From: Eledone cirrhosa
Lineage: Eukaryota
Assembly (NCBI GenBank): GCA_964016885.1
Contig: OZ024740.1
Location: 263,500,001 to 263,564,000, forward strand
Length of the DNA stretch: 64,000 nt
Direction: 5' to 3'
Shown in pieces: positions 16,503 through 51,322 of this stretch (positions within the stretch are counted from its first letter, which is position 1; each line of letters opens with the position of its first letter). Below the pieces are notes generated by a model, which saw only the letters and a list, made by a program, of their open reading frames with translations, had not been told where the DNA came from and searched no databases. The position numbers and the translations under genes are program-made.

Positions 16503-16591
16503 CTGGTGAGTATTTCAAGAGACGAAGTATAGATCACACCCCCAACATCAATATGCACGGGCGCTGAGCCCCTCCCAAACATCATCATCAT
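16503..16591 (-). CDS. Second, short exon encoding the same KCTD1/15 BTB N-terminal module (putative alternative first or mutually exclusive exon)
   Basis: Manual translation MMMMFGRGSAPVHIDVGGVIYTSSLEILT(R), then AG|GTAAGC donor at 16502 in the same phase as the long exon. In-frame TAG upstream at 16609-16607 (also a possible acceptor). Confidence 0.85.
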
Positions 16592-16841
16592 CGTTCTGGT
16601 CTTGATCTAAACGAACACCATTTTTACCACAGCACTATGTCTGTTGAGTGAATTGTGTGTGAGTAAGGTGGGGCACTTGATATGTTTGTGTATGTGTGTT
16701 CGTGCATGGCTGTATGTGTCTACGTGTTTACTTTTCAGATGATCAATATACATACACTCACACACATACACACACACACACATCTATCTATCTATATATA
16801 TATAAATATATATACACACACACACACGCACACGCACACAT

Positions 16842-16886
<45 letters not shown>

Positions 16887-17084
16887 TATATATACACACA
16901 CACACACGCACACACACACACACACATGTATATATACTTATATATATATATATTGTGCGTGTGTAATATACCAATATATGTGTATATATATATATATATG
17001 TATATATATTGTGCGTGTGTGTGTGGAATGGGAGGACCACAAATCAGGTTATTTCTCGAGACATGGTAGCTGGATGTCTGTGCG

Positions 17085-17149
<65 letters not shown>

Positions 17150-17708
17150 CGTAATGGACGCACCCAGAATTGCATATGATTGAAAGGATTTTTACGATAC
17201 CTAGTTAATTCTTCGTCTGAATGTATGTGTGAGTGAGTGCGTGTGTGTGTGTATGTGTAGGTGTATGGGTGTGTGTTTGTGTTTGTGTTTCTGAATAGGT
17301 GGTTTGTGCGAATGAGTATGTCAGTGAAATTGCGTGTGTGCACCATCGAATATTTGGAAAACCCGTCTGTATTCCTTTACTCAGATAATATATGTCTATC
17401 TATGTAGCTTAGTATCATTTGGTTGTAATTATGCATTTGTGTATCTGTGTGTATATGGGTGTTCTAGGGAGAAAACGGCTTTAAATCCAGGTACTAGCGC
17501 ACGCACGCCTGCGTGTGTACACACGCGCCAAATGGCGTATAAGTGTGTAAATGAGTACGTACATCGTATGCTGTTTTGTGTGTGTGTGCAAGTAAGCGAA
17601 TGGTGTGTACAGTATCTATCTATCTATCGATTTCCGTATGTGTGCGCTTGTAATTTTATGTTGGAAAGTAAATGGGGTATTTGATAGTTGTTGCGTTTTG
17701 TTGGTGTG

Positions 17709-17820
17709 AGAAGAAGAAGAAGAAGAAGAAGAAGAAGAAGAAGAAGAAGAAGAAGAAGAAGAAGAAGAAGAAGAAGAAGAAGAAGAAGAAGAAGAAGAAG
17801 AAGAAGAAGAAGAAGAAGAA
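17709..17820. repeat. (AAG)n trinucleotide repeat, about 37 units
   Basis: Direct inspection; source of the poly-K and poly-R ORFs. Confidence 0.97.
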
Positions 17821-18078
17821 TTACAGGGGAATGTATATTAACAACAATTTACCAGTCAAATCAAAAACCATTGAAGGAACAATCGAAATAAATAATACAA
17901 GGAACAGAAACTAGAATATAGAAGAGTAATAAAGAATCTGAAAGATATGATTAATAAAAAACATGAATAAATAATTGTTAATAAAACAAAGAAATATATA
18001 AAGTATAACAGGAAATATCACATCGCTTCATTCTTTCCGACCTCAAATTGGGAAAAATATATGATGAGTTTCACTTAC

Positions 18079-20347
18079 CTGGTGAGCGTTTCCAATGATG
18101 ATGTGTATATCACTCCACCTACGTCGATGTGTACAGGAGCTGTATAGCGGGTCGGCGTGGCTGGGCAAGGTACGCCGGAGATTTTCGTGAAGTGCCCGTT
18201 GTGAGTGACGGGCGACGAGGCCGAAGTTGTTGATGAGGACATAACCCTGCTGGCAGCGTTGGGTGACTCACAGGAAGAACTGCGGTAAACGCCGCCACCT
18301 CTATCAGCAGCCACTGTGAAGGCGGATAGGATACCCGTGCCGAGAGTCGGGGGTGGCGGATGCAGTGGTGGTGGGTGAAGGGGCGGCGCCGAAACCGTGA
18401 CGAGAGTCCTGCCGCCGGCCGATGCGTAGCCCACCAACGATGCGCACGCGGTGGGCGACAGAGATGAAGGCGGCGAAGACGATGACGAAGACGACGACAG
18501 AGACGGCGACGGCGACGACAGCGTCTGGCCCTGCTGCTGTCTGAGCGCCTGCTGCTGCTGCTGCTGCTGCTGTTGCTGCTGGTGGTGGTGGTGGTGGTGG
18601 CGGTGGCGGTGGTGGGGGTGATGCGGGTGGTGGGGGTGGTGGGGGTGGTGCGCGGAGGAAGGGGGCGGCGGAGGAGGCAGTTGATGCAAAGGTGGCGTCG
18701 TTGTCGTCGTCGTCGACGACGGCGGCGGCGGCGTCGACGTCGGCGACGTCGTCAGCGGCGACAACGATGAGACGAACGAGATTTGGGGCCGGTGTAAGAG
18801 CGGCAGATACGGGTGATGAGGGTGTGGTGGTGATGGCCCTGCGAGCTCCACGGCGACGCTGTTGTTATTACTACTAGTATAGTAGTTATTACTTATATGG
18901 TTGTAGCAGTTGTAATAGTTGTTGTTGTTGTCGTCGTTGTTGTTGTTGTTATAGTAATAGTAATAATAGTTGTTGTCGTTGTTGTTGTTGTTGTTGTTGT
19001 TGTTGCTGTTGTTGTTGTTGTTGTTGTTACTGTAGTTGGGTGACCAGACCCGTTCGATTATCTTCTTATGTTCAGGAGCGACCAAACTCACTTGTACAAC
19101 ACAGCACAGCAAAGATGGAGTAGGCGTCTGGCAACAGAGGCTATGTCGATAGAGGAGATGCCCGGGGCTCGCTTTGTCACGCTGATTACTACTACAGCAG
19201 CTGCTGCTGCTACTGCTGCTGATGATATTACCACCACCATCACTACTACCACCACCACTACAACTACTACTGTTTCCGCCACTAACACCAACTCCACTAG
19301 CAGCAACACCAGCGACACTAACACATCCGCCGCCGATAACACTACTACTGCTGCTACTGCTACTGCTAATGCTGCTGCTGCTACTACTACCACTACGATT
19401 TATAACACTGGTGTTGTTGTTATTACTGTTGGTATAATTGTTACTGCTATTACAGCTGCTGATTATAACATCGTCTCTTTTACCGCTACTACTAACAGCA
19501 ACACCACCACCACTATTTATATTACTACTACTACTACTACTACTACTACTTTTACCACTATTATTAGTACTACCACTGCAGTTACTAACAACAGCACTCT
19601 TAACTAGACTATTACAAATAGTATTGCTGTTGTTATTACCACAGCTCACACCACAACCATAACCACAACTACTACCACCACAACCAGCACCACCACTGAC
19701 AGCACCACTATCAGCGATTATACTATTAATGCTACTAATGTAATTAATAGCACTGCTACTATTATGATTACTACTAGTGTTACTACTACTGTGAACACTA
19801 GTTCCGGTAGGAAATCCTACACCTATATCACCAACTCCGAAACCACCGTTGCCAACAGCACCACCACAAATGCAAGCACCGACTACACCAGCGCCACCAG
19901 TAATGAGACGCGTACAATAGCAAGTAGTTCTGCTATTACTACTACCGACACCAATGCCAGCAATACCACCGATACTACTACTACTGCTAGTATTGTTACT
20001 GCAACAACCGCAGAAAGAGTAAGGATGTAGATACGGAGAAGACAAATGATTTTGAGACGTAGAAGTTGAAAGAACTCCGAAAGAACTCCCTACACCTACA
20101 CCGCCGACAGCAAGTTCTCCCCCGATATCATCTACAATACCAACACTACCACTAGCAGCACCACCATCAACGGCACAAATACTATTGGCATGTCCACCAA
20201 GACCACCACCAATACCACCACCAATACCACCAACACAAACACTACTTTCTAATTCGTTCCTGCTATTGGAGAAGAAACTGAGAGAAGCGCCTTCGCCAAC
20301 TATATTCCTTGCCAAGCGCGGAATCAATCTGCTTGGAAACTGGTTCC
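18079..20347 (-). CDS. Large coding exon of a KCTD1/KCTD15 (Tiwaz-like) BTB/POZ protein: low-complexity N-terminal region plus start of the BTB domain
   Basis: Stop-free frame across 2269 nt ending ...GVPCPATPTRYTAPVHIDVGGVIYTSSLETLT(R), matching the KCTD1/15 BTB start (APVHIDVGGxxYTSSLxTLT). Polypyrimidine tract + CAG acceptor at 20348-20350; AG|GTAAGT donor at 18078 (phase 2). The ORF-track start is a TTG; the only in-frame ATG is at 18242. Confidence 0.88.
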
Positions 20348-20421
20348 CTGAGGAAAGAAAAATGAATGAAAAGAAAAAAAAAATAGTTATGGAGTATGAA
20401 AGAGAGTGAAAAATTAATCAT

Positions 20422-51122: not shown

Positions 51123-51322
51123 NNNNNNNNNNNNNNNNNNNNNNNNNNNNNNNNNNNNNNNNNNNNNNNNNNNNNNNNNNNNNNNNNNNNNNNNNNNNNN
51201 NNNNNNNNNNNNNNNNNNNNNNNNNNNNNNNNNNNNNNNNNNNNNNNNNNNNNNNNNNNNNNNNNNNNNNNNNNNNNNNNNNNNNNNNNNNNNNNNNNNN
51301 NNNNNNNNNNNNNNNNNNNNNN
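51123..51322. other. Assembly gap (200 N)
   Basis: Exactly 200 N, a fixed-size scaffolding gap; true distance unknown. Confidence 0.99.

Follow-up and report, generated by a model that had tools for sequence, protein, structure and literature searches.

The stretch of DNA analyzed here (the window) comprises 64,000 nucleotides of the 3.0-Gb genome of the octopus Eledone cirrhosa (contig OZ024740.1, hereafter C1, positions 263,500,001 to 263,564,000) and contains, on its minus strand, two exons that each encode the start of the BTB domain of a KCTD1/15 protein. An earlier reading of the letters alone (the sequence-only reading) had proposed that the two blocks stem from an old duplication, that one locus uses both as N-termini, and that the resulting proteins differ by a long disordered tail. 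We find that both blocks belong to one KCTD1/15 gene, in which they are likely to act as alternative N-terminal exons, and that up to three forms, of 227 amino acids (aa), 252 aa, and 954 aa or more, could be made. The key difference between the forms is probably a 12-residue arm in front of the BTB domain and not the tail.

Two copies of the BTB start in one gene

The features of the two BTB-start blocks and of the shorter exon are as follows.

18081..18140, minus strand: BTB-start copy 1, 20 codons, from the codon comparison; Pfam BTB_2 starts at residue 37 of the 252-aa form
18073..18078, minus strand: splice donor of the long exon, joined in frame to C1:263432534-263431940; an apparently processed copy on contig C4 breaks exactly here
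16503..16591, minus strand: short coding exon with four Met, a 5-residue linker and BTB-start copy 2; start of the 227-aa form, with a homologous N-terminus in P0182
16497..16502, minus strand: splice donor of the short exon, joined in frame to the same downstream exon
16607..16609, minus strand: in-frame TAG, which ends a 4-codon upstream open reading frame (ORF; 16621-16607) and could double as a weak acceptor

Copy 1 (18140-18081) and copy 2 (16564-16505) each run into AG|GTAAG, giving splice donors of the same phase (phase 2). When the copies were compared codon by codon, 15 of the 20 codons were synonymous, 4 were identical and 1 was replaced (T to I), all of which bears out the sequence-only reading; in nucleotides, the blocks are identical at 42 of 60 positions. 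The likeness stops outside the block and donor: matches number 18 in 60 nt on the upstream side and 14 in 54 nt beyond AGGTAAG. Between the copies, pS is ~0.95 (saturated) and pN is ~0.06, and when 18 random substitutions were simulated on the block, none of 20,000 trials changed one residue or fewer, the minimum being 5. The saturated pS, the low pN, and the simulations together rule out chance as the source of the likeness. Synonymous saturation alongside so low a pN also supports the proposal that the duplication is old. Within the 339 kb that surround the locus we detected no third copy, and the genome search shows the short exon to be present once.

The genome was searched with a full mollusc KCTD15 protein; 27 of 27 candidates were scored, and 11 matches were listed. 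This search revealed one downstream exon with the rest of the BTB domain and the C-terminal domain (CTD) at C1:263432534-263431940, on the minus strand and outside the window, which matches residues 48-270 of the query at 72%; there is no second such exon among the 11 matches listed. The other listed matches are the two BTB-start copies, one copy on C4, and seven weaker matches in the BTB region (31-51% identity), which we take to be other BTB genes. Both donors join the downstream exon, 84-86 kb away, in frame, across introns of 83,968 nt (short) and 85,544 nt (long), so that the common exon predicted to lie to the left of the window does exist. Because this single exon is joined in frame by both donors, we conclude that one KCTD1/15 gene has both N-termini. 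Homologous copies on the same strand, with the same splice phase and one common downstream exon, are what characterizes tandemly duplicated exons, and all of these are found here.

The downstream exon is 100% identical to that of Octopus bimaculoides kctd15 (P0081, which is XP_014768024.1) and matches the full KCTD1-15 C-terminal profile (PF20871, positions 1-97) with 157 bits against a cut-off of 27. Proteins with either N-terminus (P0174, P0081, and P0182) score 65-68 bits for BTB_2 (PF02214; cut-off, 21.4). Judged by these domains, the gene is an ordinary KCTD1/15 clade member. The BTB_2 profile begins inside the duplicated block, and the intron splits the BTB domain after ~20 residues. The shared exon alone would thus be without a BTB start, and any new N-terminus would have to bring its own copy, which may be why exactly this block was duplicated and constrained.

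The short exon and the 227-aa form

As the sequence-only reading had it, the short copy has four tandem ATGs (16591-16580) and an upstream in-frame stop (TAG, 16609-16607). A CAG at 16598-16596 is a second weak acceptor-like site and would be in phase with the long donor; given these two sites, the short exon may be internal, with an acceptor of its own. In the short form, the arm gives way to a 9-residue leader, Met-rich at first and then G-R-G, whose conservation extends to P0081 and P0182.

The short copy is missing from the ORF list behind the sequence-only reading, but the short form is present in databases. The RefSeq model XP_014768024.1 (P0081; O. bimaculoides kctd15, 227 aa) corresponds to it, agreeing with the short exon at 28 of the first 30 residues and at all 20 residues of the block, Ile included. 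It represents a 90% cluster of 10 members, in which it is the only RefSeq entry of that species; four cluster members not named here start later or in intron-like sequence. Further, in P0182 a homologous short leader is joined to the downstream exon on one 985-nt Logan contig, which implies a spliced transcript, if the intron is also long in that species. We note that the downstream exon of P0182 differs by 6-7 residues from those of Octopus and Argonauta, which differ from each other by 0-1, and P0182 therefore comes from a more distant cephalopod, probably a squid or cuttlefish, the fork being left open in the tree. Among the 224 proteins fetched, 121 have the BTB start, and three of these begin within 10 residues before it (P0081, P0182, and P0158), P0158 apparently having been called from inside the arm. 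Since the sample was biased by the choice of queries, a restriction of the short form to cephalopods is only suggested.

The 252-aa form is seen in P0174 (Argonauta) and P0177 (51 Logan contigs). The proposal that both N-termini are in use thus gains from database proteins of other cephalopods, in which each is joined to the downstream exon, but P0081 and P0174 are gene models. In a Logan protein, P0179, the TGA stop of the downstream exon is translated as Trp and read through. The likeliest reason is that the gene caller applied another genetic code, although A-to-I editing would look alike.

The long exon, its tail, and a copy on another contig

The features of the long exon, other than its BTB-start copy and donor, are as follows.

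18079..20347, minus strand: long exon, 2269 nt, with a phase-1 start and a phase-2 end
20348..20350, minus strand: CAG acceptor after a polypyrimidine tract
18243..20347, minus strand: low-complexity tail of ~700 codons, rich in S/G/N/P, with Cys-rich patches and cross-species substitutions
18240..18242, minus strand: the only in-frame ATG of the long exon and start of the 252-aa form, at which P0174 and P0177 begin
18141..18176, minus strand: pre-BTB arm, 12 codons, aligned to the human KCTD1 N-terminal extension around Pro20; not in the short exon

The long exon lies within an open BTB frame of 779 codons and is read without a stop; its one ATG in this frame is at 18242, 54 codons before the donor, and the Met at which gastropod and bivalve proteins start is equivalent to it. 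In the two other sense frames, we counted 21 and 105 stops, together with seven ATGs. The tail frame alone is open for 701 codons, compared with a maximum of 508 and a median of 167 in 2000 block shuffles. On record, none of 24 sequencing runs is listed as RNA. For comparison across species, contigs from four Logan runs of at least three other organisms (three runs guessed to be RNA and one of unknown kind) were aligned with 19030-20420 only, with several tail bins uncovered. Over this range, 39 substitutions are listed: 20 synonymous, 19 replacements, and 0 stops. Against an expected synonymous share of 0.22-0.26, this is an excess (P = 5e-5 to 8e-4; omega ~0.3), and 21 of the 39 substitutions, including 7 of 7 between 19101 and 19911, are at third positions. 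One indel cluster (20131-20138) nets +3, and one run has a 1-base insertion at 19699, where the matches are short and of low complexity. For three of the four runs, the alignment of contigs ends at 20347-20349, with 93-581 bases left over in three records; this is as expected of a splice at the acceptor, although intron divergence in DNA contigs would look similar. A 2720-nt contig of one run extends past 20240, with no further pieces listed.

The synonymous excess, the absence of stops, and the open frame make it likely that the tail codes for protein, as part of a form of 954 aa or more, which would require an upstream exon. The isoform of ~750 aa that had been proposed thus holds in part: the tail appears to be under coding constraint, but with no ATG before 18242 it is not translatable from an ATG within the long exon, and the database proteins start at 18242. 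No upstream exon was found in the 244 kb scanned, and a GC and CpG profile and ORF scan of 339 kb revealed mostly mobile element-like ORFs, with no clear candidate among those listed of 257. The missing exon could lie in or beyond gaps such as 51123-51322, a run of 200 N upstream of the long exon. Relatives of the tail were sought in Pfam (no match), by a word search that started from residues 1-190 (0 of 8000 candidates, 415-1322 aa long), and in the ESM Atlas (no usable match); phmmer with a 69-aa piece gave three matches, all to repetitive proteins and judged unrelated. The tail has 27 Cys in its 701 residues, in Cys-rich patches within Ser/Gly/Asn runs (19030-20050), and a patch at 19830-19945 is kept in three other runs, with only synonymous changes listed. 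In the mollusc-like KCTD15 proteins P0015, P0016, and P0023, we noted a short common motif upstream of the usual Met, hinting at N-terminally extended forms outside cephalopods as well.

A copy of 19107-18079 on C4 (95% match) has 15 substitutions and five indels, all multiples of three in triplet repeats. At the long donor (18079) it ends precisely, and what follows is 99.5% identical to C1 sequence 317 kb downstream on the same strand, a 383-nt segment (C1:263201018-263200636) that lies 231 kb beyond the BTB exon. At C4:109854901-109860999, the copy and this segment are followed by a TAA repeat and a ~4.7-kb reverse transcriptase (RVT_1) element, a relative of which on C1 is 97% identical and stops 2.7 kb short at the 5′ end. 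Most simply, the C4 sequence is read as the processed copy of a transcript in which the long donor had been spliced past the BTB exon and at least 1 kb of the tail was present; the locus looks like a LINE-mobilized spliced transcript inserted in a TAA microsatellite. The partner site, poly-T followed by GAG, would be an unusual acceptor, and no poly(A) was seen at the copy, whose flank is (TAA)n; given the GAG, a join at the DNA level or by template switching is the alternative. C1:263201018-263200636 is thus a candidate alternative terminal exon of kctd15. Joining the long donor to it gives a stop after two codons, so a transcript of this kind would encode the tail, arm, and BTB start only. 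That the C4 copy is a second gene is ruled out by a stop in its tail and the stop two codons past the junction.

Loss of the arm and a possible control of AP-2

The arm codons align to residues 18-29 of human KCTD1, and the arm is nearly invariant from molluscs to annelids; a G-[VI]-P motif lies within 16 residues before the BTB start in 99 of the 121 proteins. The KCTD1 extension drapes over the neighboring BTB domain, with Pro20 in a pocket there (Pinkas et al., PMC7618933), and the arm is described as a polyproline helix that stabilizes the pentamer (Balasco et al., 10.1101/2024.06.14.599007). A TFAP2A peptide that full-length KCTD1 binds with a KD of 380 nM is bound only minimally by KCTD1 lacking the first 27 residues (KCTD1ΔN27, aa 28-257), and human disease can arise through loss of the pre-BTB contact (PMC7618933). 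The alignment places the arm in the long-exon forms and not in the short form, whose BTB start is only a few residues from the ΔN27 boundary. In the octopus genome, the AP-2 (TFAP2) gene that was found (C1:55279149-55384800) keeps 11 of 11 core residues of the TFAP2A peptide in its N-terminal PY motif, the only match to this pattern in the genome. A complex prediction with four copies of P0174 residues 18-135 (arm and BTB) and 35 residues of the octopus AP-2 gave no answer (score, 0.00; controls not folded).

By analogy with human KCTD1, the 252-aa form (and the form of 954 aa or more) would bind the AP-2 PY motif through the arm, and the 227-aa form would behave like the ΔN27 truncation. With the same CTD and nearly the same BTB domain, the forms should co-assemble where they are co-expressed, and mixed KCTD oligomers are common (PMC13361646). 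From the likeness to ΔN27, the conserved AP-2 motif, and the frequency of such oligomers, we infer that the short form co-assembles without contributing an arm; the ratio of short to long subunits would then set the number of AP-2-competent arms per ring, and the short form is predicted to dilute AP-2 repression in mixed pentamers. We put a rough probability of 0.55 on this account, in which one KCTD1/15 gene uses duplicated BTB-start copies as alternative N-terminal exons and an arm-less subunit enters the pentamer and tunes down AP-2 repression. A stronger version is possible, although we lean against it, in which cephalopods, by duplicating 20 codons of the split BTB domain, gained a built-in KCTD15 antagonist, a natural counterpart of ΔN27 by which AP-2 repression in mixed pentamers is poisoned or diluted, together with a third form with a constrained disordered tail of 700 residues. 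If this were true, one gene would be a rheostat on AP-2 and would use for normal control the defect behind human scalp-ear-nipple syndrome.

Several points weigh against the arm-loss account. First, the short form is on 1 Logan contig, compared with 51 for the 252-aa form, and may be rare or tissue-restricted; the O. sinensis and UniRef O. bimaculoides models (P0175 and P0176) use neither exon; and the short donor is without a spliced read from E. cirrhosa, reads not having been compared with the short exon. Second, the AP-2 argument rests on one human peptide assay, the conserved short leader might replace the arm or add a new function, and co-expression of the forms in one cell is an assumption.

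The alternative that survives best, which we consider rather unlikely, is that the short exon is real but regulatory, a second promoter or 5′ end, and that the short pentamer works alone in AP-2-independent roles. The conservation of the leader in P0081 and P0182 is consistent with this, as are the crystal of ΔN27 (PDB 6S4L), which has similar BTB-CTD contacts and indicates that an arm-less ring can exist, and the other partners described for KCTD1/15. However, a purely regulatory duplication could have kept the arm, which lies directly upstream of the block, and both known short forms are without it.

We regard as improbable the model of the sequence-only reading, in which a disordered tail of ~750 aa is present or absent and mixed rings differ in the number of tails (e.g. 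for condensate or co-repressor recruitment). The length of the tail frame, its synonymous excess with no stop and the indel cluster netting +3, the contigs that end at the acceptor, and the C4 copy, which would record transcripts reaching at least 19107, all speak for a tail that is translated. Against this stand the seven ATGs that are all out of frame, the upstream exon missing from the 244 kb, the guessed nature of the RNA runs and the 2720-nt contig, and the absence of a tailed cephalopod protein among the protein search matches (weak, given the low complexity). As a mechanism, loss of the arm, which in human KCTD1 serves TFAP2A binding and ring stability, is better grounded than a difference in tail number. 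Less probable still is that the short exon, once functional, is now a relic in this species. Synonymous saturation does show long past constraint and not present use, and the sole replacement sits in the short copy; yet nothing is broken in its frame, ATGs, or donor, the 20 residues recur unchanged in O. bimaculoides, and Ile at this site is also found in P0132. Finally, that the copies are two genes, each with its own downstream exons, deserves practically no credence, since it is contradicted by the only downstream exon found in the genome search, and likewise in the 339 kb around the locus, unless the assembly collapsed a second copy.

Compared with human KCTD1 and KCTD15 (clade A KCTD proteins; PDB 9FOI, full length, and 6S4L, ΔN27), the octopus gene has the same BTB_2 and KCTD1-15_CTD domains, and its long exon encodes the arm. 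Alternative N-termini exist in human KCTD1 too, one of them in an 865-aa form that carries a Crypton-derived DUF3504 domain; the octopus tail, in contrast, is of low complexity and without a Pfam domain, and whereas ΔN27 was engineered, the octopus arm-less form is encoded in the genome by a duplicated exon. In the clustered protocadherins, tandemly duplicated homologous exons are each spliced to a common constant region, and the chelicerate sDscam genes are described in the same way. The octopus locus differs in having two copies only, in that its unit is 20 codons of a split domain, and in that a binding arm is lost and not a range of specificities gained. ΔNp63 and ΔNp73 are isoforms from internal promoters in which an N-terminally shortened subunit enters the oligomer and opposes the full-length form; here, what is shortened is a co-repressor instead of a DNA-binding protein, and the opposition to the full-length form is a prediction only.

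Alternative 5′ exons that arise by tandem duplication and ΔN antagonist isoforms are thus known kinds, the former being a well-known class of mechanism, and the short sequence itself is in RefSeq. What appears to be new is that the exon is duplicated, that it persists in a distant cephalopod, and that it matches a truncation that loses AP-2 binding; no paper on octopus KCTD15 isoforms was found in the literature searched, most subscription papers being outside its scope. KCTD1/15 repress AP-2 in vertebrate ectoderm, neural crest, and kidney (PMC7618933), and the arm-less isoform is a candidate cephalopod-specific control on AP-2. A conserved natural isoform of this kind would also allow a direct test of an arm-less subunit in the ring. 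With regard to annotation, the name of XP_014768024.1, which shares the short N-terminus and the downstream exon, notes neither the duplicated long exon nor the loss of the arm. Since the RefSeq entry for kctd15 of O. bimaculoides lacks the arm and neither exon is used in other octopus models, functional work on them would start from an atypical protein.

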